Shown: positions 4,267 to 32,683, numbered from the stretch's first letter. The stretch: DNA of 64,000 nt from Nitrosopumilaceae archaeon (GCA_052389415.1 JBQTHX010000018.1:1-64000), one strand, 5' to 3'. Program-made: numbers and translations. The notes: generated by a model from the letters alone, not told the origin.

Positions 4267-4995
4267 ATGCAAGAAAAAAAAATTGAACCAGCTGATCATG
4301 ATTGGTATCATAGAATAGCTGATCAATCAAATTCATGGCTTATTGCAACAAATCTTGAAGAAGAAGGAAATCTTGAAGAAGCAATAAAAATTTACCTAAA
4401 AGATGCTACACAGTGTTGGGGAAAAGGTTCACTTGTAAAAGCTGGGTTGTCTTGTGCATGTGCAGCAAACTGTCTAGAAAAGATAGGCTTTGCAAAGATT
4501 GCCCGAGCACTTTACTTGGAATCTGCCACGATATTTGAAAAGAACGCTCATGATGTAATAGATTTTTCAATAAGAGAAGCACTTTGGTCTTTGCAACGAG
4601 CCTATGAAAGCTACATTCTATCAGACTCGATAAAGAAAGCCGAAGAATTGCTCAAAAATTACAGATCATTATTATTGAAGACTAGTCCGTTCATGGGAAT
4701 CGAGGAACAAAACAACGCTCTCTCAATAGGTGAAATAGATTGGAATTCTGCCAAATTTAGGTTAGATTATATCGAGAATATACCAAAAATAAAACAATCC
4801 AGTAATTCAAGTCCGATACCACCCGATCTGTCCATTTCACTTGACACCTTTCTGCAAGCTAGGGCATCAAACATACGCGTAAATGATCTTACCAGTGAAG
4901 CAAAATCGCCCTCGCCAGATGAGGGAGAGCATGATAAGATGCCCATTAGTTTAAAGAAAGGAGAAGAAAAACGTGAAAACAATTCTGATGATTAA
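4267..4995 (+). CDS. Hypothetical helical-repeat (TPR/SNAP-like) protein
   Basis: 242-aa ORF with repeated helical patterns (A..YL..A, A..LY.ESA..FE). Overlaps the GT4 start. Confidence 0.55.
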   Translation: MQEKKIEPADHDWYHRIADQSNSWLIATNLEEEGNLEEAIKIYLKDATQCWGKGSLVKAGLSCACAANCLEKIGFAKIARALYLESATIFEKNAHDVIDFSIREALWSLQRAYESYILSDSIKKAEELLKNYRSLLLKTSPFMGIEEQNNALSIGEIDWNSAKFRLDYIENIPKIKQSSNSSPIPPDLSISLDTFLQARASNIRVNDLTSEAKSPSPDEGEHDKMPISLKKGEEKRENNSDD

Positions 4996-18888: not shown

Positions 18889-19288
18889 TGATAGATGATG
18901 AACTTTTTCTGATATTTATTCCGATTGATCCGTTATGTGGAAAACTGATATGGTATTTATTACAAAAGCTAGTTTTGAGTACATGAATTTTGAGTAAACA
19001 CCAATACTTTTTTGGTTTTTCACGTTTTTTTAAAAAAAAGGGAATCTGTTATGATTTCCGAAAAAACTTCCCATGTAGGGTGTCACATAAATTGCTCCTT
19101 TAAAATGACCCTTTGAATATTTGAATAGATGAACTATCCCGATGCTAGCAGATCCTGAGAGACATGATTTTATTTAGATGGTTATTTCGAGAAAAATCTA
19201 TTTAACAGATTGGAAAGATACAAGAACCTATTGTCTTTCCTGGAAATTACAATACAAGATAATTAAAGTTCTTTCGCTATTGGGAATT

Positions 19289-19747
19289 ATGAGTAAACAA
19301 GTTTGCTTTTTATGTGAACAAGAACTAGGAGTGCTAAATATAAAATGGTCTGCAAAGGGTTTTCTTTCTTCAAGAGTTCCTATTCCAGAAGGGATGGGTG
19401 AAGAGGACAGAGTTTGTAACGAGTGTTACAACGTAGAAAAAAAGCAAGTCAAAGAAGAACTAAAGGAAGCAAAAGAGGAATTTAAAGAGATAACTGTGGA
19501 TCTACTCAAAAGAACGCCTGAATACAAAAAACTCTGGAACAAGGATGGTGTTATTCAGTTCAAGAACGAAAGAGTAGCTATTCTTCAAAGAGCGCTAGGC
19601 AAGCAAGTGGAATTTATCATTGCGTTTGACGATCTAACAAAGGAAGGATACAAACTCATGGCAATACAGGAGATTCAAAGCACAGATGGTAAATCTGTAG
19701 GAGGAATTAATTCCAACTACTTTTTCCAGAAAATGCAAAGCCTGTAG
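19289..19747 (+). CDS. Hypothetical protein with N-terminal Zn ribbon
   Basis: CFLC...CNEC. The ATG at 19289 is preferred over the track start at 19178. Confidence 0.6.
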   Translation: MSKQVCFLCEQELGVLNIKWSAKGFLSSRVPIPEGMGEEDRVCNECYNVEKKQVKEELKEAKEEFKEITVDLLKRTPEYKKLWNKDGVIQFKNERVAILQRALGKQVEFIIAFDDLTKEGYKLMAIQEIQSTDGKSVGGINSNYFFQKMQSL

Positions 19748-19847
19748 TTATGTAGTTCAATTCTAAAATAATAAAACGAATCTTTATTTTTAATCCATTT
19801 TAAAACTGCCCAGAATATTTATTTGAGGGAGAAATTCTCATTCATGC

Positions 19848-20086: not shown

Positions 20087-20461
20087 TTGCAAGATCCAAA
20101 CCCGTTGCCATGGGGCGCACAAGACCGTTTTCAGGCTCATTTCATAGTAAGGAGAAACCTTTCTGAAGATGACAAGGGATTTGTAGCTGAAACAAAACAA
20201 ACAACCAAAGGATTCTTTGGGTCAAATAAGCTGATTAATGTAGAATGGATAGGTGGAAGTATTGCTGACATACTAAACAACGACTCTGACCTTACCAAAA
20301 TGATTCTAAAACAGTCTATCAAAGATGCTCAAATTAGGATAGATCCAACAAAGAATGGAGTGAGAATTTATGGAAAATGGAAAAGCGAAAACGAGTTTGG
20401 AATCTCAAAAGAACTGTTTGCTATATACGACAGAATAGCATCTCACATAAAAAATCTCTAA
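20087..20461 (+). CDS. Hypothetical protein
   Basis: 124-aa ORF converging on endA. Confidence 0.6.
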   Translation: MQDPNPLPWGAQDRFQAHFIVRRNLSEDDKGFVAETKQTTKGFFGSNKLINVEWIGGSIADILNNDSDLTKMILKQSIKDAQIRIDPTKNGVRIYGKWKSENEFGISKELFAIYDRIASHIKNL

Positions 20462-20994
20462 GCTCGCCACCAATCTAGTGCTATACAATCTACCTTATCT
20501 TTGCCCCGTGGTATAGCTAAGATAAATTGCTTCTTGACTGTAGTGGCAAGCCTCCCAGCCAGAACCACTCCTGTAGCAGTAATTGTATCACTGGTGTTAT
20601 AGACCTGAACTAAATAGGGAGCATGATCAATTCCAGGTCCTTTTTGATATACTGCAAAATCACAACCAAATTTTATTCCGGGATTTACTATGTATCCCTT
20701 TTCTCTGAAATCTTTGTAGACTGAATATTTTTTATCAAAGTTATGGTATTCTGACCTTGCTATTTGCAATAACTCCTTTTCTGAAATTTGTTTTTTTGCT
20801 TTGTAAACTTTAATTTTTGATTTTTGTATTAGGTAATATCCTTCTATTAAATCCAAAATCAGAGGTACGTTTATCTCATCTAGTTTTGGTTTTGATATTC
20901 CAACTGGTTTTCCATAATATCCCTGCACAAAAAGAGAACGCGAATCTTGGATGTTCCAGATTACGATTCTATTTTCTATTAGTTCGCCTTTCAA
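20458..20994 (-). CDS. endA: tRNA-splicing endonuclease, catalytic subunit
   Basis: G.KFG.DFAVY..GPG.DHA and R.A..VKK catalytic Y/H/K motifs. TTG start at 20994 (MKGELIENR) is inferred from the att duplication. Confidence 0.9.
   Translation of the reverse strand: MKGELIENRIVIWNIQDSRSLFVQGYYGKPVGISKPKLDEINVPLILDLIEGYYLIQKSKIKVYKAKKQISEKELLQIARSEYHNFDKKYSVYKDFREKGYIVNPGIKFGCDFAVYQKGPGIDHAPYLVQVYNTSDTITATGVVLAGRLATTVKKQFILAIPRGKDKVDCIALDWWRA
20982..20994. repeat. attL core (GTTCGCCTTTCAA)
   Basis: Identical to 32671-32683. Reverse complement TTGAAAGGCGAAC is the first 13 nt of endA. Confidence 0.85.
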
Positions 20995-21040
20995 TTTAGG
21001 ATTATTGTCACTTAAATGCCAGTAATTAACGTTATAGACC
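20995..21040. promoter_or_regulatory. Compact divergent promoter region between endA and the integrase
   Basis: 46 bp. TTAAAT at 21012-21017 lies 24-29 nt before the integrase ATG. TAATTAA at 21023-21029 lies ~30 nt before the endA TTG on the minus strand. Confidence 0.45.
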
Positions 21041-22297
21041 ATGCAACGAAGTCTACTGCGATTCGAAAATGCCATAAAGAGTGAATCTACAAGAAAGTCA
21101 TACAGGTATCAGCTACAAAAGTTTCTGGGATGGGCAAAAGTTCCTGAAGCTGATGGACTGTTGAAACTTAGTGATTCTGACTTGGAATTGTTGCTTGAGG
21201 ATTACCTGTTCTATAAAAAAACTAGAATCAGTCCTAATAGCATTCCTTTGATCTTTTCTCCACTTGAATTATTCTTTGGTATGAACGACAAAAATGTTAA
21301 TTTTAAAAAATTAAGAAAAATGTTTCCTGCTAAAGTGAAGAGAAGTGGTTATGCTGCTTGGAGTAATGAAGATGCTCGAAAAATACTTGATGGTGCGAAA
21401 GGTTATCGTAACAAAGCACTAGTTCACGTTCTTGCAAGTACTGGATGTCGACTAGGGGCTATTCCTACATTGAAAGTAGGTCATGTTTCAGACATGCAAG
21501 GTGGATGCAAAGCAATCCTTCTCTATGAAGGATCAAACGAAGAATACTACGGTTTCTTAACCCCTGAAGCAAGTAAGGCACTGGATGAATATTTGGAGAG
21601 ACGAAAACAGGACGGCGAAAAAGTAGGGATTGAATCTCCACTTTTCCGTTTACATTACAGGATAGGTTCAGCAAAGGTGGAACCGCTTAACATGATTGCC
21701 CTGCAAGCCACGATGGTGAACATCATGAAATATGCAAGACCTAAGAGACACAAGGTTGGAATACGATACAACATTCAGCTTGATCACGGTTTTAGAAAGA
21801 GATTTGCCACAATTATCAAAATGGATAAAAAGATCAGTTGGGCAGTAGGGGAAAAACTACTTGGTCATAAAACATATCTTGATGCGGAATATTTCAATCC
21901 TACAAAAGAAAACCTTTTTGCAGAATTTCAAAAGGTTGTTTTTAATCTTACAATCGACGATTCTGAAAGAAACAAAATAACCATTCATGATCTAAAACAG
22001 CATAATTCTACTCTTCAAGTCAAGACTGCAGAAATTCCTGAAATGAAGAAGCAGATTGAACATGATCACTTGATAGTTCAGGTATTGGCAAAAACTATGA
22101 AGGAGATTGGAATAAATTTTGAATATCCTGACGGCACGCCATATAAGATTGATGAAAATCTCAAAATCCCTGCTGAATACCTTCCTGAAACTGTTGCATA
22201 CGATAAACCTCTAGTTGCACATAGCGAAGAAATTTTTCGTAAGATGCGTGAAAAAAATAGTACTAATTTTTTTAATGGGGAAAAAAGGTCCTACTAA
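21041..22297 (+). CDS. Tyrosine recombinase/integrase
   Basis: TGCRLG (R), HGFRK (HxxR), LLGH and AEYF (Y) catalytic motifs. N-terminal T.KSY...L..F core-binding region and a C-terminal coiled-coil extension. Confidence 0.93.
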   Translation: MQRSLLRFENAIKSESTRKSYRYQLQKFLGWAKVPEADGLLKLSDSDLELLLEDYLFYKKTRISPNSIPLIFSPLELFFGMNDKNVNFKKLRKMFPAKVKRSGYAAWSNEDARKILDGAKGYRNKALVHVLASTGCRLGAIPTLKVGHVSDMQGGCKAILLYEGSNEEYYGFLTPEASKALDEYLERRKQDGEKVGIESPLFRLHYRIGSAKVEPLNMIALQATMVNIMKYARPKRHKVGIRYNIQLDHGFRKRFATIIKMDKKISWAVGEKLLGHKTYLDAEYFNPTKENLFAEFQKVVFNLTIDDSERNKITIHDLKQHNSTLQVKTAEIPEMKKQIEHDHLIVQVLAKTMKEIGINFEYPDGTPYKIDENLKIPAEYLPETVAYDKPLVAHSEEIFRKMREKNSTNFFNGEKRSY

Positions 22298-22489
22298 ATT
22301 TTAGAGAATTTTTTCTTGTTTTAATTACTTAGTAAAATAAATTCATCACACTTTATACATTTCCAGAAACCTATGATTACGCCTAAAACCTCACACTAAG
22401 CGTGATATGATGTGTGATATTATAAAAAATGTGAAAATAGCCATAATGTTAGGCATAACAAAATCACATTTTGATAGCTACCACAGGCA

Positions 22490-22975
22490 TAACGTTTTCA
22501 GTACCGCATATTTTTTATGTTCACATAATTTTTTAAAATCACATAATTACACATTTTAGGCACATAATTAACATCTAGATATTCACATAAAAAATTGCCA
22601 AAAGTTTTTTTTGACCCGATACAGCTTGTTTGACACATCTTATGATTTGAATCTTTTAGGTCCATAAGAAAATCTTAGGAATAAGATTTTGAAATATTCT
22701 AAGATCAGGCATTTTATTCCTAAGATTCCTTCTATCTTGTTCCTAAGAAAAAAGGTATTGTAATAACATTTAGCATATTTGCTTGTAATACCATATGACT
22801 CGTTGCAGGAAACGTCATAATATGGGACGAGTGAGTTCTTATAGGCTCATATTAAAATCATGTGCACATGATTTTATGATATCACATGATCTGGTTTTTT
22901 GTTCACATGATCATTCACAAGCTACGCACATGAAAAAGAGGTCTATTCAAATGAAAAAAGCTTGTATGACAAAAG
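22490..22975. repeat. Non-coding array of three homologous units with unit-specific heptamer repeats
   Basis: Heptamer starts: CACATAA 22522/22540/22561/22584; nnTAAGA 22680/22698/22719/22742; CACATGA 22865/22883/22904/22927. All are spaced 18/21/23 and each set begins within a 22-bp palindrome. Confidence 0.9.
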
Positions 22976-23035
22976 CCTCGACATAAGCTTGATTATTTTG
23001 TACAAAAAGATGCGAATTTATCCATTTATGCAACA

Positions 23036-23061
23036 ATTGCGTAATCATTGTATAGATTACG
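23036..23061. repeat. Symmetric 26-bp site, copy 1 (ATTGCGTAATC-N8-GATTACG)
   Basis: 23/26 identical to 24014-24039. Contains the stop codon of the nfo-like gene. Confidence 0.75.
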
Positions 23062-23902
23062 CGGATAATTCCTTTACTTTTTTTATGTTTCCAAAGTCAT
23101 CGCGTCTATCATCTATTGGCGTTTCCAAAATGATTGGAATCTTCTTAGAACTAGCAAATTTAATCACGTGTCTGAGTCCTTCTTCTCCTATCTTGCCTAA
23201 TCCAATGTGCTCATGTCTGTTTACGTTGCACCCTATTTCTCCCTTCGAATCATTTAGATGAATTAGTTTGAGGTGCTCAAATCCTATGGATTCATCAAAT
23301 TTTTTAAGCGTTGTTGAAACTGATGTTTCAGTTCGTAAATCATATCCTGCTGCAAATGCATGGCAAGTGTCAAAGCAGATGCCAAACCTATTTGCAGGTT
23401 TGAGTTGCCGCAAAATGGAAGCTAGCTGCTCAAAATCAGAACCTACGCTGTTTTTGAATCCAGCCGTGTTCTGAAGAAGAATCATAACATCGTTTTGGTT
23501 TTCTGAAGTAGCTTTTGTAAACGCTTCAACAAGCTTTTCTATTGCCCTCTCGTCACCCGCTCCCATGTGGCTTCCTAGCTTAGATATGAGGTATGGAATG
23601 CCTAGTTGACCAGCTCTTCTTGTCTCATCAATTAAGCTGTTCAAAGATCTTACAAAAAAATCTCCATGTGGAGATGATAGATTTGACAGAATTGGCATTT
23701 TAGCAAACGTTGCAAACCTGTCAATTTTACTTGCAGCAAGTTTTTCTCTAAAATTAGTTATAACATCATTTGAAAGTGGTTTTGCTTTCCACCCACGTGG
23801 ATTTCTTGTAAAAATTTGAAAAGCAGTGCAACCAAGAGTTAGTGCGTTATCTACTGCTCTATCGATGGAACCACTGATGGATACATGCATTCCAAGCTGC
23901 AT
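23057..23902 (-). CDS. Endonuclease IV (Nfo)-like paralog with substituted metal ligands
   Basis: GMHVSI.G, QIFTRNPRGW, CFDTCH, HLNDSK and ILETP are intact, but K68, I71, K108, Q144 and N228 replace canonical H, Y, H, E and D. Confidence 0.9.
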   Translation of the reverse strand: MQLGMHVSISGSIDRAVDNALTLGCTAFQIFTRNPRGWKAKPLSNDVITNFREKLAASKIDRFATFAKMPILSNLSSPHGDFFVRSLNSLIDETRRAGQLGIPYLISKLGSHMGAGDERAIEKLVEAFTKATSENQNDVMILLQNTAGFKNSVGSDFEQLASILRQLKPANRFGICFDTCHAFAAGYDLRTETSVSTTLKKFDESIGFEHLKLIHLNDSKGEIGCNVNRHEHIGLGKIGEEGLRHVIKFASSKKIPIILETPIDDRRDDFGNIKKVKELSA

Positions 23903-24013
23903 CGTCTTTCATCTATAACAAGTCGGTGATTTAGATAAACTGGATCGTCTCATATACGAATAAAATTTTAATTTCATGTGAGAATTAGATTTACCGTCGT
24001 AATCCTAAACAAG

Positions 24014-24039
24014 ATTGCGTAATCTTAGTAGAGATTACG
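24014..24039. repeat. Symmetric 26-bp site, copy 2
   Basis: ATTGCGTAATCTTAGTAGAGATTACG, preceded by an overlapping similar unit at 23998-24019. Confidence 0.75.
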
Positions 24040-24278
24040 AAATAAAATCAAATCATACGCAAGAACAGAAACGCAGATAGATCCTAATCTATGCTGGATC
24101 TCAACAGACTAGAACCAATATTGTAGTTTGAACAAAGATTCAATCGATATACATGGAAGTGTCAAAAAGACACCTGCTGAACAAGATGAAATAAAGCTAA
24201 TTTTGGTCAGAATAAGATAATCGTTTGTCGAAAAACTTTAGGCTTTATATATTTATTTTATAAAATGTACAAATATTT

Positions 24279-24301
24279 TATCTTTACAACAAGTAAAGAT
24301 A
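24279..24301. promoter_or_regulatory. Inverted repeat (candidate operator) upstream of the Lamassu operon
   Basis: TATCTTTAC-aacaa-GTAAAGATA, a perfect 9-bp stem abutting the TATA-like ATATTAA ~26 nt before the GTG at 24330. Confidence 0.45.
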
Positions 24302-24329
24302 TTAACTAATCACAAATGATGATCAAGAA

Positions 24330-25549
24330 GTGGGAAAATTTTCTGCAGCTTCGTCTGCTCTCGGATACCTATTTCAGGCAAGGGAAGGATTACTCCTATT
24401 ACTAAATTCAGAACCAAAAACTGTCATGTATTTAGAACGTTTTGATGACATAGAATTTGAAAAAGATGGTTCACCAACGGAACTAATACAGTTAAAACAC
24501 AAACCAAGGTCGGCAACATCTCTGTCGGATACTAGCCCGGACATATGGAAAACACTACGAATTTGGATTGAAGCGCATAAGAGCCGCCATGTTAACTTAG
24601 ATAACACAATTTTCACCATAATTACTACAAATAAGGCAGAACATAATTCTGTAGCAAGTGTATTAGGATTAGATCAATCTAAACGGGATGTCAAATACGC
24701 TGTGGAGACTCTAACAACAGTGGCTAAAACTTCAGTTAGTAAGACTAACGAAGTAGCATACAAAGTCTTCTTAAATCTAGAATACGGCGAACAATACAAA
24801 TTATTAGATAGCACAAGAATCATAGATTCAGCTTCAACTATAGTAAATTTGCAAGAGGCATTCTACAAAAAATTAAGAATAGCCATTGACCAGAACACCT
24901 CAAATCCTTCCTCGAACGATTAGAGGGGTGGTGGTTTGGCGTTGTCATTAGTCATTTATCCGGTGACTCTTCAGAACCAATTCATTATGAGGAGTTAGAA
25001 GCAAAGATTCATGATCTAAGTGACCAGTATCGAGTTGAAGATCTGCCAATAGATTACAGAAACCTGATTCCTACAGAGGAAGCAGAATTAACAGCAAAAC
25101 AACAAATTTTTGTAAATCAACTAAACATCATCATGTTAAGACAACCCAGAATAAAAAAAGCTATTACCGATTATTACAAAGCGTATAATCAACGGTCAAG
25201 ATGGGTAAGAGAAAAGCTTGTTTTTCTCAACGAACTAAGTGAATATGAATCACAGTTAATTGATGAATGGGAACGTTATTTCTTTAAAGTTGATGAAGGT
25301 CTTCGTTCTACCCCCACCGAAGGCGAGTTAGTGAGTGCAGGAAGAACAATTTTTGACTGGATGGATACTCAAGCCGATTTCTGCATAAGAAAGTATTGTA
25401 CGGAACCATACGTTATGAGAGGCACGTATCATATTCTTGCAAATAAACTTCGTGTAGGCTGGCATCCAAAATTCCTAGAGCGTCTACAAGAATTACTTTC
25501 ACCAGATTCGGAGAAACATTATGGAACAACAGAAAGAGCGTCCAATTGA
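24330..25549 (+). pseudogene. Frameshifted Lamassu/ABC-3C effector (LmuA-like; Cap4-type PD-(D/E)xK nuclease plus C-terminal domain)
   Basis: The N-part has GY.FQ and E.FDDIEF...IQLKH. The -1 frame from 24890 is open to 25549 (EHLKSFLERLEGWW...LP.D...QRSRW...RGTYH.LAN..VGWHP). The joined product is ~406 aa. Confidence 0.8.
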
Positions 25550-26006
25550 AATAGCGTCCCTTCTTAATCCAGCATTTTGTGGTCAGACTATATTGCATTG
25601 TATTTACAAATTTGAAAAAGTTGCTTCAGATGGATTCCCATACCCGTTGGTTTTTCTAGTATTGCCATTAATACTACATCAGGAAACAAGAGCAAAGGTT
25701 CCTTCTTTTACCCGCATCCCGTTTCATGTTTGGCTCCATAAAAATCAGAATCTGTTAATTGGCTTCGCAGAACGTGCAAAACAATTGGTCACAATTACGA
25801 AAGAAGCCATTGCATTCTTGGCGAGTTATGACGTACTTAAATTAGAAGATGGAAAATTCAGAGTTAGTAACTTTGAACCAAAATATGATGCTGCTATCTC
25901 ACTGGATGTAAAGGATTGCTTTGCGAAGGCGGAAGTATTAGGAAAGTGGTTTGCAAGAACGGGTACTACAGCGACAATATATTCTATGTTAGGAGTGCAA
26001 CCCTAG
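25521..26006 (+). CDS. ABC-three-component middle component (LmuC-like, DUF6521-type)
   Basis: LLNPAFCG, FLVLPLILH..TR, LGKWF motifs. Lies between the effector and the ATPase. Confidence 0.85.
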   Translation: MEQQKERPIEIASLLNPAFCGQTILHCIYKFEKVASDGFPYPLVFLVLPLILHQETRAKVPSFTRIPFHVWLHKNQNLLIGFAERAKQLVTITKEAIAFLASYDVLKLEDGKFRVSNFEPKYDAAISLDVKDCFAKAEVLGKWFARTGTTATIYSMLGVQP

Positions 26007-26007
26007 T

Positions 26008-27924
26008 TTGCAAATTTTGCAAGTAATTCTATATGGTTATAATAACAAAGTACGTACGTTATCGTTTAAACTAGGCTCAGTAAACATAATCACTGGTAAT
26101 TCTGCAACAGGCAAATCCGCCATACTAGAAATTGTTGATTATTGTTTAGGTAAATCGGAATGTTCGGTACCAGCTGGCGTCATCCGTGATTCAGTAAGAT
26201 GGTTCGGAATTGTTCTACAACTGAAAAATAGTCAAATGTTTATTGCAAGGAAAAATCCTCCAGCTGGTAGCACATCTTCAGAAGTGTACATAGAGGAAGC
26301 TAAAGAGATTCGTATTCCGTCCTCTCCAATGCCAAGTAATAGTAATGTTGATGCATTAATTGAGACTCTGAGTAATAAAGTCGGAATATCTCCTAATCTT
26401 TACATTCCACCGAGAGGTCAAACGCGAGAAAAGTTATCCGCGACGATACGTCATACTACATTCTTCTGTTTTCAAAAGCAGGATGAAATTGCGACCAACA
26501 GATATCTATTCCATCGTCAAGCAGATGGTTTTATCGCGCAATCGATTAAGGATTCTTTAGAATATTTTTTGGGCGCGATTAGGGAAGACAGATTAGCATT
26601 ACTACAGAAATTAACTCTAGAAAAGAGGAATTTAAGCAAAGCAGAACGAGAACTGGTCGAGGCAGAAGCAATTAGAGGGGAAGGAATAAGCAAAGCTGTA
26701 GGATTAATAATACAAGCCAAAGAAGTTGGACTTGCTTCTCAGGAAGTTAACACACAAACACCGGAAGAATATCTAAAAGTGCTCCAAAATATTTCAAAAT
26801 GGAGACCTCGCGATCTAAAGGTTCCAAAAGCAAATCTTTTAGAAAAACTACAAGATGACCTGCTGACACTAAAAGAAGAATTAAGAAGGAAAAATGAAGA
26901 AATAAATTCAGCAGTTACATTCTCTCAAGAGGCAGAAGGATTTACGGATGAGATACAATATCAAGAACACCGTCTCGAATCTATAGGGCTATTTGATGAA
27001 CACAGTGAATCCGATTGCCCCATGTGTTCGCAGCCTATTAAGGAAAGGAGTGATAAAGCTAAAGAAATTCAAAAGATGATTCATGAACTAAAAAATAATC
27101 TTGAGGGCTCACTGAGAACAAGATCGAATATTAGAGATTACATAGCAAAATCTGACGAAGAAGCAGAATCGATCAGAAAGAAAATCGACGAAAAAACCAT
27201 TGAAATTTCATCGTTAATACAAGAACATGAATCATCAAGCAAGTTACGTGATGAGAATATCCGGCAAAGCCAGATCATTGGCAAGATAAAATTTTGGCTC
27301 GAGAGTGTTGCTCTTACAGACGAAACGTCAGAATTGCGGTTGGCTGTTGAAAAAGCTAAGAAGAAAGTGAAGGAACTAGAATCATTAATTTCTGATGAGG
27401 AGAGAATAATGCGTCTAACTAGGATTTTGAACATTATCGGAAGGCAAATGTCTATTTGGACAGAAGAATTAGAATTAGAGCATAGTGGATATCCTGTTTA
27501 TTTTGATATTCACAAATTAACAGTTGGAGTAGAAAAAGATGAACAATATATTCCTCTAATAGAAATGGGGAGTGGCGAGAATTGGTTAGGCTATCATATA
27601 ATAGTAAATTTTGCTCTGCATTTGTATTTCCATCGGCATAATAGACCAGTACCAAGTTTTCTCTTCTTAGATCAACCGTCTCAAGTCTATTTCCCGCCAG
27701 ATTTAGCAGATGAGTCGAAGGGTTCAATAGCTAAACTGAAAGATCGAGATAGAGATGCGATTAAAAGGATATACAATTTCATTTTCAAAGTTACAGAATC
27801 AATGGCGCCAAACTTTCAGGTAATAGTAACGGATCATGCAAAGTTGGACGATCCTAAATTCCTTAAAAGTATTAGAGAAGAATGGAGAGACGGTAAAGCT
27901 TTGATTCCTCAAGATTGGCAATAG
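26008..27924 (+). CDS. SMC/Rad50-like ABC ATPase (LmuB-like, DUF3732-type)
   Basis: Walker A GNSATGKS, coiled coils, CPMC Zn hook, GSGENW signature, FLFLDQPSQ Walker B, TDHA. Confidence 0.9.
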   Translation: MQILQVILYGYNNKVRTLSFKLGSVNIITGNSATGKSAILEIVDYCLGKSECSVPAGVIRDSVRWFGIVLQLKNSQMFIARKNPPAGSTSSEVYIEEAKEIRIPSSPMPSNSNVDALIETLSNKVGISPNLYIPPRGQTREKLSATIRHTTFFCFQKQDEIATNRYLFHRQADGFIAQSIKDSLEYFLGAIREDRLALLQKLTLEKRNLSKAERELVEAEAIRGEGISKAVGLIIQAKEVGLASQEVNTQTPEEYLKVLQNISKWRPRDLKVPKANLLEKLQDDLLTLKEELRRKNEEINSAVTFSQEAEGFTDEIQYQEHRLESIGLFDEHSESDCPMCSQPIKERSDKAKEIQKMIHELKNNLEGSLRTRSNIRDYIAKSDEEAESIRKKIDEKTIEISSLIQEHESSSKLRDENIRQSQIIGKIKFWLESVALTDETSELRLAVEKAKKKVKELESLISDEERIMRLTRILNIIGRQMSIWTEELELEHSGYPVYFDIHKLTVGVEKDEQYIPLIEMGSGENWLGYHIIVNFALHLYFHRHNRPVPSFLFLDQPSQVYFPPDLADESKGSIAKLKDRDRDAIKRIYNFIFKVTESMAPNFQVIVTDHAKLDDPKFLKSIREEWRDGKALIPQDWQ

Positions 27925-28387
27925 GCGGTGACAAATTAATGACAGGACGATTCATGGAGTCTTTTCCAGATGTTGAAATTATAACTTGAATCTTATTTCA
28001 ACTTAAAATATCACTTTCAGGAACAACTGATGCCTTTGGATGTTAAGATTGTAGTAGATCCTGCCAAACAAATAGGATGATACATGTCTTGCATTGATAA
28101 TGTTGTATTGGCTGCTTTTGCGTTTTACTATCAATGAAAACTATGACTAAATTCAATGGAAATAAGATTAATTTTGTTAATTAATGAATGACGTGGCAAT
28201 AAATTTCTAAACAATAATCTTTTCGTGCAAATTTTCTAAACGATTAAAATTTCCAGTTTAGGAAATGTGAAACTGATGAATTCTACTTAAAGTTTAATAA
28301 AATCGACTATACGACCACGGTATGAATGTATTTTTGAATCATGACATCCATTCAGGCATATATTTCGAAAGGGATATGATGTAATAG

Positions 28388-29452
28388 ATGTATCCACTGA
28401 TTGACGCCGCACGACTTTACGATGAACTTGCTTTGTCGTCGGAGAGAATTAAATGGTCTTGGGCTTGCAGAATTTTAGATAAATCCAACCTTAAGATTGA
28501 TACTTCACTGCCAACGACGCCAAGAGCTGGTGATATTGTTCTTGTAAGAGTGGAACAAATTGGTTATCATAAATCAATCATAGCTTCTAGCAATAAAAAA
28601 CTCCGTATATATGATGGCGATCTTATCATGGGAATTTTTGGGAACCGATATGCCACAAACGCACTTGAAGGTGTAGTCGAAGGATTTGAAAACCTCAGCA
28701 TTTTGACTGCAGGTGGAATGATTGGAACGGTAAAATCCAAACATCAAGACTTTGGGAAAACTACCAACGTCTCATTTATTGGGTTTCTAAATGACAAGAG
28801 TAACCATAGGGTTAACCTAAAAGAACTGAAATTTCACAAATCGAAACCAGTCAGCGATACAAAAAATCTAATAGTTTTAGTTGGAACAGGAATGAATACA
28901 GGCAAAACAACATCTGTTAGAATGCTAATTAGAGGACTTTCAAAAAGGGATCTAAAAATAGCTGCATGCAAACTTACAGGTAGTGTGTCAAATAGAGACG
29001 CAGACGAAATGAGGTCCGCATCAGCTAGCTGTACAATTGATTTTAGCGATTATGGATTTCCTTCAACATATCTGTGTGACAAAGAAGAGTTACTTGATCT
29101 CTTCAATAATATGTTATCTGATGTGGAAAAGTTAAATCCAGACGCAACGGTGATGGAAATTGCTGATGGTATTCTTCAAAGAGAAACCATGATGCTTCTT
29201 GAGGATCCATCAATTAAAAAAAGAGTCAAAGGCATTATACTAACAGCGGAAAGTGCACCATCTGCGCTTTATGGTGTTGACAAACTCAAAAAATTAGGTT
29301 ACAATATAATCGGGGTATCGGGTGCAATGACATCGTCACCATTATTTGTAAAAGAATTCAGGCAAAACTGCGAAGTCAGAGTAGCGTCATCTGTTGATTC
29401 GGCGGATGAATTGGTCGAAATTGTTCACAAGGCTATTACTATGGAAAACTAG
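28388..29452 (+). CDS. DUF1611-like P-loop NTPase (BioD/SIMIBI-type)
   Basis: GNRYAT, GTGMNTGKTT, KLTG....D, DF.D.GFPSTY, EIADGILQRET. Confidence 0.7.
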   Translation: MYPLIDAARLYDELALSSERIKWSWACRILDKSNLKIDTSLPTTPRAGDIVLVRVEQIGYHKSIIASSNKKLRIYDGDLIMGIFGNRYATNALEGVVEGFENLSILTAGGMIGTVKSKHQDFGKTTNVSFIGFLNDKSNHRVNLKELKFHKSKPVSDTKNLIVLVGTGMNTGKTTSVRMLIRGLSKRDLKIAACKLTGSVSNRDADEMRSASASCTIDFSDYGFPSTYLCDKEELLDLFNNMLSDVEKLNPDATVMEIADGILQRETMMLLEDPSIKKRVKGIILTAESAPSALYGVDKLKKLGYNIIGVSGAMTSSPLFVKEFRQNCEVRVASSVDSADELVEIVHKAITMEN

Positions 29453-29468
29453 AAGACATTGTTGAAGA

Positions 29469-31241
29469 ATGAGCTCACAGCAGATATCTCCAGTAAAATA
29501 TGCACTTAAGCATCTTAAAAAATATAAGCTAAAATTAGCAGCTGCCATCTTCTGGTCTATTCTTTTTGTAATAATTCCTATGCAGGTGCCTATTCTTACT
29601 GGAGCTTTAATTGATGGCATACATGGAAAGAGTGTAAAATTATACGGACTTGTAGAATTAAATCAATCACAGGAACAAATTCTCAATCTTGCTGTTATAG
29701 GTCTAGTTCTAGTTGCCGCAATTTATGGTGTCACTGCGTATTTTCGTACAACTGCAAGAGCAAAGATAAGTCGGCACTTCATATTTGAGCTTCAAAAAGC
29801 ACTGATTCAAAAATTAGAATTTCTATCCTTAGATATACACGCAAAATACGGATCTGGAGAACTACTAAACAGAACAATAGTTGATACTGGTTCAGTAAGA
29901 CCGTTTGTTGAAGGCACTATAATCAAAGCGTGCACCAACGTTGTTAGAATAACATATCCATTTCTAATACTGTTCATTATGGATCCAATTCTTGCTGCAA
30001 TGTCTTCGTCAATCTTGCCCGTTCAATTCTTACTTACTAGAACTCTACAAAAAAAAGTTCGTAAAGCGTCAAGACATTCTAGAAAAAACAGATCAAAGTT
30101 AACCACCTTCGTAAAGGAAAGTCTTGATGGCATAGAAACAATTCAAACTTCAAATGCCGAAAGATATTCAATTGAGAAAATTTCCCGACAAGCAGAAATG
30201 GTGGAAACCCATCAATTACATACTCAGAAATATTTTGGACTGATGACTGGTCTTGCATGGTCTCTAACTAGTTTAGGACTAGCAATAACATGGTGGCAAG
30301 GTGGACTCAAGGTCATATCAGGAGAAATGACAATAGGCAATCTAATAGTTTTCACAGGGTTTGTACTCTTTATTTATGCCCCCCTGCGCAGATTTACGGA
30401 AGTAATGAAGGATTACCATAAAAGTATAACAGCAGTTGAGAATATTCAAGAAATTCTGGATACACCTTCATCAATTCAGGAATCTCCAGATGCGGTACAA
30501 TTAACAGCGCCACATGGAAAAATAGAACTCCAGAACGTCAGTTTTTCATATGCTGAACGCAAAGTATTGAACAATCTTAACATTACTATCGAAAAAAATA
30601 GCATTACAGCCATAGTAGGTAAAAGTGGTTCAGGGAAGAGCTCTCTTTTAAAATTGATTACAAGACTGTATGATCCCTCGGAGGGACAAATTCTGATTGA
30701 TGGACAGGATATCAAAAAAATCACTCTTCTATCCCTTAGAAAGGCTATCGCAGTTGTTCCTCAGACACCTGTGATCTTTAATGGAACAATACTGGAAAAT
30801 GTCAGATTAGCAAGACCAGAGGCAACAGATCAAGAAGTAATAGAAGCATGCAAATCAGCTGACGCGTTGGAATTTATTCTTAAACTTGATAGGGGATTCA
30901 ACGCAGTTCTAGGAACTGGTGGAACCAATCTTTCTGGAGGACAAGTCCAACGAGTAGCCATAGCAAGAGCCTTACTTAAGAAACCAAGAATACTTTTGCT
31001 GGATGAACCCAGCTCCGCCTTAGATGCTAAATCAGAATCAGCTGTGATAGCAACGTTAGAACATCTAAAAAATAATATGACAATCATATTGGTTGGGCAT
31101 CATCTTAAAGCAATTAGCAGTGCAGACAGATTAATCGTATTAGATGACGGAAAAGTAGTGCAAGAAGGAACTCATAAAGAACTTGTTTCTTCACAGGGAG
31201 TTTACAGTCTCTTGTATTCTTGGGAGGAAAATAAAAATTGA
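29469..31241 (+). CDS. ABC exporter, fused permease/ATP-binding protein
   Basis: Six-TM domain plus GKSGSGKS, LSGGQ and LLLDE. Confidence 0.93.
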   Translation: MSSQQISPVKYALKHLKKYKLKLAAAIFWSILFVIIPMQVPILTGALIDGIHGKSVKLYGLVELNQSQEQILNLAVIGLVLVAAIYGVTAYFRTTARAKISRHFIFELQKALIQKLEFLSLDIHAKYGSGELLNRTIVDTGSVRPFVEGTIIKACTNVVRITYPFLILFIMDPILAAMSSSILPVQFLLTRTLQKKVRKASRHSRKNRSKLTTFVKESLDGIETIQTSNAERYSIEKISRQAEMVETHQLHTQKYFGLMTGLAWSLTSLGLAITWWQGGLKVISGEMTIGNLIVFTGFVLFIYAPLRRFTEVMKDYHKSITAVENIQEILDTPSSIQESPDAVQLTAPHGKIELQNVSFSYAERKVLNNLNITIEKNSITAIVGKSGSGKSSLLKLITRLYDPSEGQILIDGQDIKKITLLSLRKAIAVVPQTPVIFNGTILENVRLARPEATDQEVIEACKSADALEFILKLDRGFNAVLGTGGTNLSGGQVQRVAIARALLKKPRILLLDEPSSALDAKSESAVIATLEHLKNNMTIILVGHHLKAISSADRLIVLDDGKVVQEGTHKELVSSQGVYSLLYSWEENKN

Positions 31242-32575
31242 TTCAACTAGATTCTGTTCTGAAACCTATAGAAAATCACAACTCATCTGAATCTGAAATT
31301 ATTGGTTTTTCAGAAGAGGATAGGCCATTAACCGTTACATACCATGGTAGAAACATAAAATCATCACTTAGGGTTTTTATTATTGCGGGTCAACATGGAG
31401 ACGAAAGATATGGACGTAAAGCCATTGATCGTTTTATTACTTACATGACAGATGGAAAACTAAATTTTCCACTAATGCAGTTTGCAATTTTGTCTAACGC
31501 AAATCCAGACGGTGCGTCAGTAAGGAAACGAGAAAACGCACAGGGGATAGATTTGAATAGAGATCATCAACGTTTGGACAGTAAGGAGAACCGCTGTGTA
31601 CATTCCTTCGTAAGACGATGGAATCCACACATGATTATTGATGTACACAACTACCCTTCAAAAAGGAAACATCTACTAGAAAAAGACATCATGCTATATT
31701 ATGATGTACTTGTAGACGTTCCAACAAATCCAGCTGCCTATTGTATTAAAGAAAAAAGCAAAGCAGAATTCATAAAAAATATTCGTTCAGATCTACGATC
31801 TCATAACATTAATTGTGAAAGATACTTTATTGTAAAGCCATCGGGGAGAGTCAGACATGGTAGCCCTGACATAGTAGACGCTAGAAATTCGCTTTCATTA
31901 AGGTACAACACTTTGACTTTTCTAGTAGAGGGACGAACTTCCACACGAGGAGAAGATAAATCCTACAGGGAACATCTTGTTTCTTCCCAATGCGAAGCGA
32001 TTGCATCAATACTGCGATGGACCCAAACGCAAAGAAGTTCTTTAATGGAAAATCAAAACTCCATTCCTAAAAAAGGAGACAATGTCGCAATTAGTTCGAG
32101 ATATGTAGGAGCTACTCAACCATTTGAAATAAGTTTTAAGAATTTACAAACAAGAAAATTGGACGTTGTTTCACTTGTAAAGTATACGCCCAGCATAAAA
32201 GTTACAAAATATGCTACTTTACCAACTTGTTACGCTATTCCATCAGGTAAGTCCAAGGTCATTGAAATGCTACATAGACATGGATTCGTGTCTGCGCTTT
32301 CTGACTCCCATAAGTTTGAAAATATTCAATATTATAGTATTCAGTCTGTAAAATATTCAACACGCGAAAATAGAGCGCCAAGGAAAATCACTATGTTGAC
32401 AAAATCAGAACAAAGAAGATTAGATAAATTCTTTATTTTCCCCACATCTCAAAGAGGAGGTCACTCGCTTGCAGTCTTTTTGGAGCCTGACTCGAAGTAC
32501 GGACTTCATAGATACGCCGATCTAGATCTGCCAATTATTCCAGATTCACATTATCATATCTTACGAATTATGTGA
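31238..32575 (+). CDS. M14 family zinc carboxypeptidase
   Basis: GQHGDE (HxxE), NPDG, RENAQGIDLNRD, IDVH. No signal peptide. Confidence 0.88.
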   Translation: MIQLDSVLKPIENHNSSESEIIGFSEEDRPLTVTYHGRNIKSSLRVFIIAGQHGDERYGRKAIDRFITYMTDGKLNFPLMQFAILSNANPDGASVRKRENAQGIDLNRDHQRLDSKENRCVHSFVRRWNPHMIIDVHNYPSKRKHLLEKDIMLYYDVLVDVPTNPAAYCIKEKSKAEFIKNIRSDLRSHNINCERYFIVKPSGRVRHGSPDIVDARNSLSLRYNTLTFLVEGRTSTRGEDKSYREHLVSSQCEAIASILRWTQTQRSSLMENQNSIPKKGDNVAISSRYVGATQPFEISFKNLQTRKLDVVSLVKYTPSIKVTKYATLPTCYAIPSGKSKVIEMLHRHGFVSALSDSHKFENIQYYSIQSVKYSTRENRAPRKITMLTKSEQRRLDKFFIFPTSQRGGHSLAVFLEPDSKYGLHRYADLDLPIIPDSHYHILRIM

Positions 32576-32670
32576 CCATCATGTGGATACACACTTCAAG
32601 TTCAGCCTTGATGACACGTAGTCTTTAGAATTTTTGATACTATCATACAATTGAAAAAATTCGCTAATTT

Positions 32671-32683
32671 GTTCGCCTTTCAA
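32671..32683. repeat. attR core (GTTCGCCTTTCAA)
   Basis: Identical to 20982-20994. Begins 1 nt after the DUF47 stop codon on the minus strand. Confidence 0.85.

Follow-up and report, generated by a model that had tools for sequence, protein, structure and literature searches.

Three repeat units downstream of an integrase gene

We analyzed a stretch of 64,000 nucleotides from a contig of a Nitrosopumilaceae archaeon (the window; all coordinates are positions in this whole stretch), in which a non-coding array of three repeat units lies directly 3' of an intact tyrosine recombinase (integrase) gene, an adjacency already pointed out in a preliminary description of this DNA. The array occupies most of the 760-bp gap between that gene and a convergent nfo-like gene. 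Each of the three units is a non-coding module of 150 to 190 bp with its own 7-base word, which occurs once as an inverted pair and three more times as phased direct copies. The integrase gene and the units are as follows.

21041 to 22297, plus strand: tyrosine recombinase of 418 amino acids, PF00589 match, Xer/Cre-like two-domain fold with a long C-terminal helix
22505 to 22658, plus strand: unit 1, left arm TTATGTT at 22515, CACATAA at 22522, 22540, 22561, and 22584, then an A-run, a T8 run at about 22605 to 22612, and GCTTGT at 22624
22659 to 22844, plus strand: unit 2, left arm TCTTAGG at 22673, AATAAGA at 22680, TCTAAGA at 22698, CCTAAGA at 22719 and 22742, then an A-run and GCTTGT at 22781
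22845 to 23020, plus strand: unit 3, 24-bp perfect palindrome at 22853 to 22876, left arm TCATGTG at 22858, CACATGA at 22865, 22883, 22904, and 22927, then CAAATGA at 22948 and GCTTGT at 22960

Every word copy was located, and in all three units the copies stand at 0, +18, +39, and +62 (steps of 18, 21, and 23 bp), which was the central claim of the preliminary description. Other claims that could be read directly from the DNA were likewise borne out: the period is 158 bp and then 185 bp on recount, an A-run (an A5-6 tract) follows the last word copy in each unit, GCTTGT begins 40, 39, and 33 bp past the first base of the last copy in units 1, 2, and 3 (a range of 33 to 40 bp had been given), and TAGGnnCATA precedes units 2 and 3. 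Unit 1 has the T8 run in addition, and the whole region is AT-rich. Two further claims stood in part. A 22-bp palindrome had been described for each unit; it is perfect in unit 3, where the inverted arms pair at 12/12 positions (12 + 12 nt), but the arms pair at only 9/11 positions in unit 2 and at 6/11 in unit 1. A concerted change of the heptamer across all five copies of a unit applies to the direct copies of units 1 and 3 but not to unit 2, in which the 5-mer TAAGA is all that the four right-hand copies have in common. Unit 3 carries an imperfect fifth direct copy, CAAATGA at 22948, 21 bp past copy four. When the units are read as 8-6-8 sites, the center of unit 2 (AGGAAT) is asymmetric, that of unit 3 (GTGCAC) is palindromic, and the arms of unit 1 are poor. 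A CRISPR array or a simple tandem repeat was considered and rejected, as in the preliminary description, the word being 7 nt long and unequally spaced, the units being 44 to 59% identical outside the words, and the window containing no CRISPR-DR match.

The neighboring integrase looks functional as judged from its catalytic residues, low ratio of nonsynonymous to synonymous substitution rates (dN/dS), and predicted fold. Residues R137, H249-x-x-R252, H276, and Y284 are invariant in 10 homologs, and dN/dS was 0.11 to 0.12 against the integrases of two close relatives, loci L048 and L049. An AlphaFold model (mean predicted local distance difference test score, 82) consists of a two-domain recombinase and a 49-residue helix (residues 307 to 355), and among solved structures it is closest to XerA, Cre, and XerH. 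The model contains no third globular domain or separate arm-binding domain, the long helix being all that follows the catalytic domain. All NCBIfam matches of the protein were below cutoff, the best being NF040815 (XerA/integron integrase) with 62.8 bits against a cutoff of 220. The genome also has paralogs of the integrase on contigs C77, C55, and C54.

The units are nonrandom and related to each other

The preliminary description had raised the question of whether such a geometry would arise often by chance. None of 5,000 dinucleotide-preserving shuffles of positions 22298 to 23056 gave any 5-mer at 0/18/39/62 on either strand, compared to the three instances observed. On both strands of the whole 1.43-Mb genome, the sole other instance of the geometry (C68:16299) lies within two long open reading frames (ORFs). 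Chains of four 6-mers 15 to 27 bp apart did not occur in any of five block shuffles of the genome, and the real genomic 6-mer chains other than the array, among those inspected, had spacings that were mostly multiples of 3; a generic scan for clusters of four 6-mers returned 309 in the genome and was too unspecific for use. The array region contains 23 repeated 7-mers, versus 5.4 in shuffles. The units are also alike outside the words, with an ungapped identity of 0.44 to 0.59 compared to 0.31 to 0.33 in shuffled sequence (0 to 57 of 5,000 shuffles reached the observed value). Because this similarity exceeds that of shuffles, the three units are, on sequence comparison, diverged paralogs in which the word has been altered in all copies of a unit and the spacing has been kept exact. 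To this extent, the preliminary description is supported in general form: the bank of modules is real and nonrandom, with a fixed geometry, a unit-specific word, and strong conservation of unit 3 (see below).

Homology to close relatives begins and ends at unit borders

The two close relatives, L048 (integrase 84% identical) and L049 (integrase 82% identical), came from one metagenome scan. L048 is homologous to the window from a tRNA-splicing endonuclease gene through the integrase gene and the first 200 bp of the gap, and homology stops at about 22503 to 22505, which is the start of unit 1. L049 is unrelated from about integrase codon 375 onward, and homology resumes at 22845, 8 bases before the unit 3 palindrome, and continues through nfo. 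Both breakpoints coincide with unit borders (by a rough estimate, the chance is about 1/10 for each), which is why the units appear to behave as discrete cassettes. Past its breakpoint, L048 has a degenerate module with AACATCA, AACATCA, AACAATC, and AACAAAA at 0/18/39/62, an A-run, and AGCTTG at +40; this module scores 23/28, a score that occurs 102 times in 2.9 Mb (both genome strands), and its tail is also found in a further relative, L050.

The block that contains unit 3 (22845 to 23056) is 87.3% identical in the window and L049, with 95% identity at 22900 to 22959 and a drop after about 23020. Between the same two loci, codon positions 1, 2, and 3 of nfo are 76, 79, and 49% identical and the non-coding DNA upstream of nfo is 66% identical; the synonymous substitution rate (dS) is 0.72 for the integrase gene and 1.96 for nfo. 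The palindrome is unchanged in L049, and the direct copies, altered at word positions 2 and 3 only, read CATATGA, CGCATGA, CATATGA, and CATATGA. Within 22900 to 22959, there are only three differences, all at word positions 2 and 3. This pattern suggests either strong purifying selection over the full length of unit 3 or recent exchange of one unit-sized block, and either would speak for a functional, discrete module.

The array lies in a polymorphic integrated element

The array is part of an integrated element of about 11.7 kb, as seen from the repeats at its attachment (att) sites, from genomes in which the site is empty, and from contig breaks and a joint in one DNA run. The features of the element outside the array are as follows.

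20982 to 20994, no strand assigned: attL, left copy of the 13-bp direct repeat GTTCGCCTTTCAA
20995 to 32683, no strand assigned: integrated element with the integrase gene, array, nfo paralog, ABC-3C defense genes, a P-loop ORF, an ABC transporter, and an M14-like peptidase
23057 to 23902, minus strand: nfo-like apurinic/apyrimidinic endonuclease, PF01261, a cargo paralog with three copies in the genome
32671 to 32683, no strand assigned: attR, right copy of GTTCGCCTTTCAA

The element is absent from the same site in four same-genus genomes, in which sequence up to 20998 joins directly to sequence from 32667 onward, so that the tRNA-splicing endonuclease gene abuts the ortholog of 32667 onward (a DUF47 gene, followed by DNA ligase). 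In run X1, contigs break exactly at the element ends, with a depth of 14.6 for the element piece and of 19.7 to 19.9 for the flanks, and a 47-nt contig links the left flank straight to the right flank, i.e., an empty site. Filled and empty sites coexist in this one DNA run, and the element is therefore polymorphic in its population; run X1 may be the source of the present assembly and is not independent support for the sequence. The 13-bp repeat was found by short-word BLAST and synteny, a repeat search with a seed of 14 having given none. A tRNA target was considered, and the window contains no tRNA gene. The contigs of three runs contained no circular form of the element, but contigs drop rare variants and are uninformative on absence.

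These results locate the att sites of the element at 20982 to 20994 and 32671 to 32683, outside the array, so that the array is not at an att site. Close to its right end, the element has heptamers at 32568 and 32579 as well; these fall within the M14-like ORF or at its end, and we treated them as chance occurrences. None of the nine non-nested ORFs of at least 90 amino acids in 20995 to 32683 matched a replication initiator, ParB/RHH-type, or small DNA-binding regulator family.

Several features of the element and its left flank were seen in passing. An ORF at 24330 to 24923 matches residues 6 to 139 of solved 388-amino-acid ABC-3C proteins (E = 2.4e-11), and a CTD7 domain is found in a separate ORF at 25133 to 25549, 210 bp downstream; the ABC-3C effector gene may be split or arranged as two genes. 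About 900 bp of the window (18900 to 19814), including an ORF at 19178 to 19747 (189 amino acids, no Pfam match), is missing from the syntenic region of the compared same-genus genomes. Orthologs of the tRNA-splicing endonuclease ORF (20458 to 21075) align only from about residue 27, for which reason the true start of the endonuclease probably lies near 20998 and its overlap with the integrase start is probably an artifact of calling the longest ORF.

A second type of site flanks the nfo gene.

23039 to 23062, plus strand: inverted-repeat site GCGTAATC-N8-GATTACGC, which ends the non-coding region and overlaps the nfo stop codon
24017 to 24040, plus strand: second copy, GCGTAATC-N8-GATTACGA, upstream of nfo

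The consensus (TT)GCGTARTC-N8-GAYTACGC(AA) has just these two copies in the genome, one on each side of the nfo cargo gene. It is present in one to four copies in six integrase-homolog loci (L055, L059, L062, L070, L081, and L083), with the first copy 0 to 830 bp past the integrase stop codon, and in L059 the gene between two copies is a different one (Laminin_G_3 domain). Since the arms are conserved while the 8-bp centers vary, this site could act as the core site of a recombinase and delimit gene cassettes.

Distribution of the word pattern among integrase homologs

Between the integrase gene and unit 1 lies a region (U0) with two modules of its own.

22346 to 22418, plus strand: U0 module A, TCACACT at 22346 and 22391, followed by inverted imperfect copies
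22440 to 22492, plus strand: U0 module B, GCCATAA at 22440 and GGCATAA at 22452 and 22486

L048 and L050 also have module A in conserved form, and the layout in L062 is analogous. The module B word, G[GC]CAT[AG]A, occurs as a pair 12 bp apart and 137 to 173 bp past the integrase stop codon in the window, L048, L059, L062, and L070, and L049 has a single copy at +150 from the stop codon. The A or G form of this word toggles in all copies of a locus at once.

The preliminary description had proposed looking for the architecture of units 1 to 3 downstream of homologous integrases, and it proved not to be a general companion of this family: beside 80 integrase homologs (at most 58% identical; 465 kb), no place scored 25/28 or more. 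A separate chain scan found no 18/21/23-spaced repeat chain in the other integrase-homolog loci examined, and in a further 207 kb of loci, the L049 ortholog of unit 3 was the sole place that scored at least 25. Comparison of the array DNA with 60 relatives gave chance-level matches only (17 to 54 nt), a pattern of four CACATRA copies (the words of units 1 and 3, with up to two mismatches) was found in none of 400 other genomes of the class, and five word-and-geometry patterns gave no match in IMG/VR. The exact architecture is thus so far confined to one lineage. Judged from sequence comparison, relatives do exist: L049 has the unit 3 ortholog, L048 has the degenerate module, and several homologs have looser clusters of CAT[A/G]A-type words beside them.

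Post-integrase gaps rich in repeated 7-mers were found in L059, L062, and L067 (0/200 shuffles reached the observed number) and, more weakly, in L070 (13/200); seven other post-integrase gaps had no such enrichment. L059 (1674 to 2120) and L070 (4228 to 4672) are 86% identical over 447 non-coding bp, their integrases being 51% identical, and in this conserved stretch all three copies of CATAAGCTCA in one locus are CATGAGCTCA in the other. Units 1 and 3 differ by the same A/G toggle. That all copies toggle at once within an otherwise conserved stretch argues for a joint reading of the word copies by some factor with an element-dependent specificity; in L049, likewise, three direct copies of unit 3 read CATATGA.

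Other repeats were seen in post-integrase gaps. The 1,170-bp non-coding region after the integrase homolog of L062 (49% identical) contains, at 4450 to 4900, three tandem units of about 168 bp, which are 72 to 82% identical to each other and of a sequence type different from that of units 1 to 3. The self-palindromic TAGCTA is crowded in some gaps, with seven exact copies in L049 (1180 to 1600) and five in L067 (4330 to 4545). Among the gene neighbors of the integrase family at 80 loci (L053 to L132), the commonest were HsdS (16 loci) and HsdM (9 loci), and TBP, HicA, and HicB were found at 6 loci each.

Candidate functions of the units

We propose that the units would be cis-acting non-coding modules in the backbone of an integrative element and that several copies of one sequence-specific DNA-binding protein would assemble on each, with the inverted word pair as the core and the three direct copies at their fixed spacings (18, 21, and 23 bp) to one side of it. 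The reading that we favored, and which we put forward tentatively, is that the units are complex recombinase sites with an inverted core and accessory direct repeats. Each unit would then be the site of a simple Xer/Cre-type tyrosine recombinase, the inverted pair would be the crossover core, and the direct repeats would be accessory; recombination in or near the core would allow whole units to be gained, lost, or swapped between related elements, and the word (CACATAA, CCTAAGA, or CACATGA) would select the matching recombinase variant or partner site. Three points in this scheme are inferences: protein binding to the units, the identity of the binding protein with the integrase or one of its paralogs, and the location of the crossover in the core. 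We favored this reading because the integrase is the only DNA enzyme common to all related loci, because the units seem to behave as exchangeable cassettes, and because the integrase family often adjoins hsdS genes (16/80 loci), a pairing typical of recombinases that rearrange DNA nearby. A number of observations, however, weigh against it. The element has three word types but a single integrase gene. The heptamers abut without an obvious 6- to 8-bp spacer, and the inverted pair of unit 1 is weak (6/11). The att repeat GTTCGCCTTTCAA, located upstream of the integrase gene, is unrelated in sequence to the heptamers, and so the sole site that can be credited to this integrase differs from them. 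Conservation in unit 3 is as high in the spacers as in the words, which simple selection on binding sites would not predict. Contigs of three runs gave no unit-level rearrangement, although contigs drop rare variants. Perfect covariation of the word type with integrase residues, the covariation envisaged in the preliminary description, was not found either, no alignment column of the integrases of six loci perfectly separating CATAA from CATGA loci. Finally, the U0 region is 71.5% identical to that of L050, whose integrase is only 36% identical, and L059 and L070 show the same contrast (86 versus 51%); as non-coding DNA is here better conserved than the adjoining integrases, a conserved host factor or an RNA fits at least equally well.

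A rather unlikely alternative is that the units are iteron-type sites, that is, a replication origin, copy-control locus, or partition locus that binds an initiator or centromere protein. The inverted pair would be an operator or dimer site, the A/T tracts would serve in unwinding, and the three specificities would serve, hijack, or titrate three different initiators, by way of incompatibility or as decoys. The 18/21/23-bp phasing, the sharing of the repeat word by the inverted pair, and the A5-6 tract of each unit (with T8 in unit 1) are consistent with such sites, iteron origins being known to combine direct repeats with an inverted operator; so are the position of the array in the non-coding backbone of a mobile element with defense genes and the conservation of a whole module including its spacers, which in our judgment is expected of an origin. 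Passages of a survey of Thaumarchaeota also describe many cryptic integrated elements without a recognizable replication protein (PMC6563490). However, the ORFs of the element that were considered above include no initiator or ParB/RHH-type family, and the words in their geometry were not found elsewhere in the genome, in 400 genomes of the class (words of units 1 and 3), or in IMG/VR, which leaves no cognate replicon in view. That the array is a neutral relic of tandem duplication without present function is very unlikely. The units are paralogs and their exact architecture is found in one lineage only, as such a relic would have it, but the words have been changed in all copies of a unit with the spacing kept exact, unit 3 is far better conserved than neighboring third codon positions, and repeated 7-mers are in excess over shuffles (23 versus 5.4).

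Transcription of the units was weighed as well. Each unit might be a promoter-operator module, possibly with a short transcript, in which the T-rich stretch past the first copy would be the TATA box, copies 1 to 4 would be operators around the B recognition element/TATA region and the transcription start, and a small RNA would end at the next T-run; this, too, we consider improbable on balance. TATA-like runs begin 8 bp past the unit center in all three units (TTTTTTAAAA, TTTTGAAATA, and TTTTATGATA), conservation of unit 3 extends from the palindrome to about 23020, just past a T4 run at about 22993 to 22996, and ACAAGCT between copies 3 and 4 of unit 3 pairs with AGCTTGT in the predicted fold, a pair that the sole change in L049 (AGTTTGT) would retain as G-U. 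Sites of the res/irs type are known to hold promoters (PMC7157771). However, none of the units has a gene downstream, the next gene converging on the array; units 1 and 2 lack an equivalent of the ACAAGCT/AGCTTGT stem; the T8 run of unit 1 would end a transcript after about 45 nt; and the promoter reading presupposes a general archaeal promoter geometry. The window has no Rfam match at the gathering threshold (CRISPR-DR included), and at E values of up to 1, Rfam gave a single weak CRISPR-DR match in L024, L059, and L070, located elsewhere in L070. Fold z-scores of units 1, 2, and 3 were inconsistent (+1.2, -3.6, and -0.4 on the plus strand; +0.5, -2.6, and -2.4 on the minus strand), and the consensus RNA fold only pairs the left arm with copy 3, which gives no consistent support to the structured non-coding RNAs that the preliminary description had listed as candidates. 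It is extremely unlikely that the units encode small proteins. The spacings of 18 and 21 bp are multiples of three, an ORF was called at 22795 to 22986, and the unit 3 frame through copies 1 to 3 (MISHDLVFCSHDH..., 36 amino acids) is open, also in L049. The fourth copy, however, is out of frame, unit 1 has a stop codon between copies 2 and 3, and the frame is closed in unit 2. For unit 3, a coding function was rejected on comparison of the window with L049, as synonymous differences (about 4) were not in excess over nonsynonymous ones (about 9), the dS of neighboring genes being 0.7 to 2.0.

Comparison with known systems

The irs of Tn4430 has a core, IR1-IR2, with same-side direct repeats, DR1-DR2, by the recombinase gene, and promoters inside (PMC7157771). 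Like the irs of Tn4430 and Tn5401, which are sites of TnpI, the array uses one motif inverted in a core and again as direct repeats on one side, beside a recombinase gene. It differs from them in having three direct repeats rather than two, with a shared word of 7 to 9 bp; in lying downstream, not upstream, of the gene; in the presence of three variants in tandem; and in its setting, which is an archaeal integrative element without a transposase. The integron site attI1 comprises a simple site of two inverted integrase-binding sequences and the direct sites DR1 and DR2, with core sites of 7 to 8 bp (PMC4618277), and likewise combines an inverted pair with direct sites beside a tyrosine recombinase gene; as in integrons, the content past the integrase differs between strains in cassette-sized blocks. 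However, with 62.8 bits against a cutoff of 220 on the XerA/integron-integrase model, the integrase is not of the IntI type, and the units are without a conserved ORF and only 150 to 190 bp long. No attC-like long imperfect palindrome was seen in them, no dedicated attC search having been made.

The simple sites of archaeal XerA/dif and of Cre/loxP come into view because the model of the neighboring integrase is closest to XerA, Cre, and XerH. In our own reading of the units as 8-6-8 sites, units 2 and 3 have common arms, AAAATC(T/A)T, but different central 6-bp sequences; lox or FRT spacer variants, each of which recombines only with its like, offer a parallel. Unlike those sites, the array has direct repeats that copy the inner half of the core rather than the outer arms, and unit 1 does not fit. 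Iteron origins such as those of pSC101, R6K, and P1 have direct repeats about two helical turns apart, an inverted copy, and an adjoining A/T-rich tract, and in the Rep iterons of geminiviruses and circoviruses the arrangement is fixed and the word changes with the lineage. From both of these, the present element differs in the lack of an initiator gene among ORFs of at least 90 amino acids, the lack of a nonanucleotide hairpin, and the presence of three specificities side by side. A literature search on iterons in connection with archaeal integrative elements and tyrosine recombinases gave no account of such repeat modules, and a term search of the main survey of thaumarchaeal integrated elements, its supplements excluded, gave none either (PMC6563490).

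Implications for mobile elements of ammonia-oxidizing archaea

The mobile elements of ammonia-oxidizing archaea have been described mainly by their genes, and the literature searches above yielded no account of their cis-acting sites. The array adds a concrete set of candidate sites with a fixed geometry, three natural word variants, and an adjoining intact integrase gene, in an element that is polymorphic in a natural population. Should the units be bound by the integrase or one of its paralogs, they would form a natural series for shifts in recombinase or initiator specificity by one base (CATAA versus CATGA) and might supply orthogonal recombination sites. Binding by a host factor would instead indicate that these archaea have a regulator of mobile DNA not known so far. 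A broader proposal, which we regard as distinctly unlikely, is that Nitrosopumilaceae integrative elements carry, after an Xer-like integrase gene, a platform that collects and exchanges short non-coding docking-array cassettes, each with its own word, and that this bank provides orthogonal landing pads or decoys for the recombinases or initiators of rival elements. If this were true, the platform would be a device for defense by titration or for the hijacking of helpers, set beside other defense genes, and the concerted switching of words would reflect an arms race in which specificity is contested.

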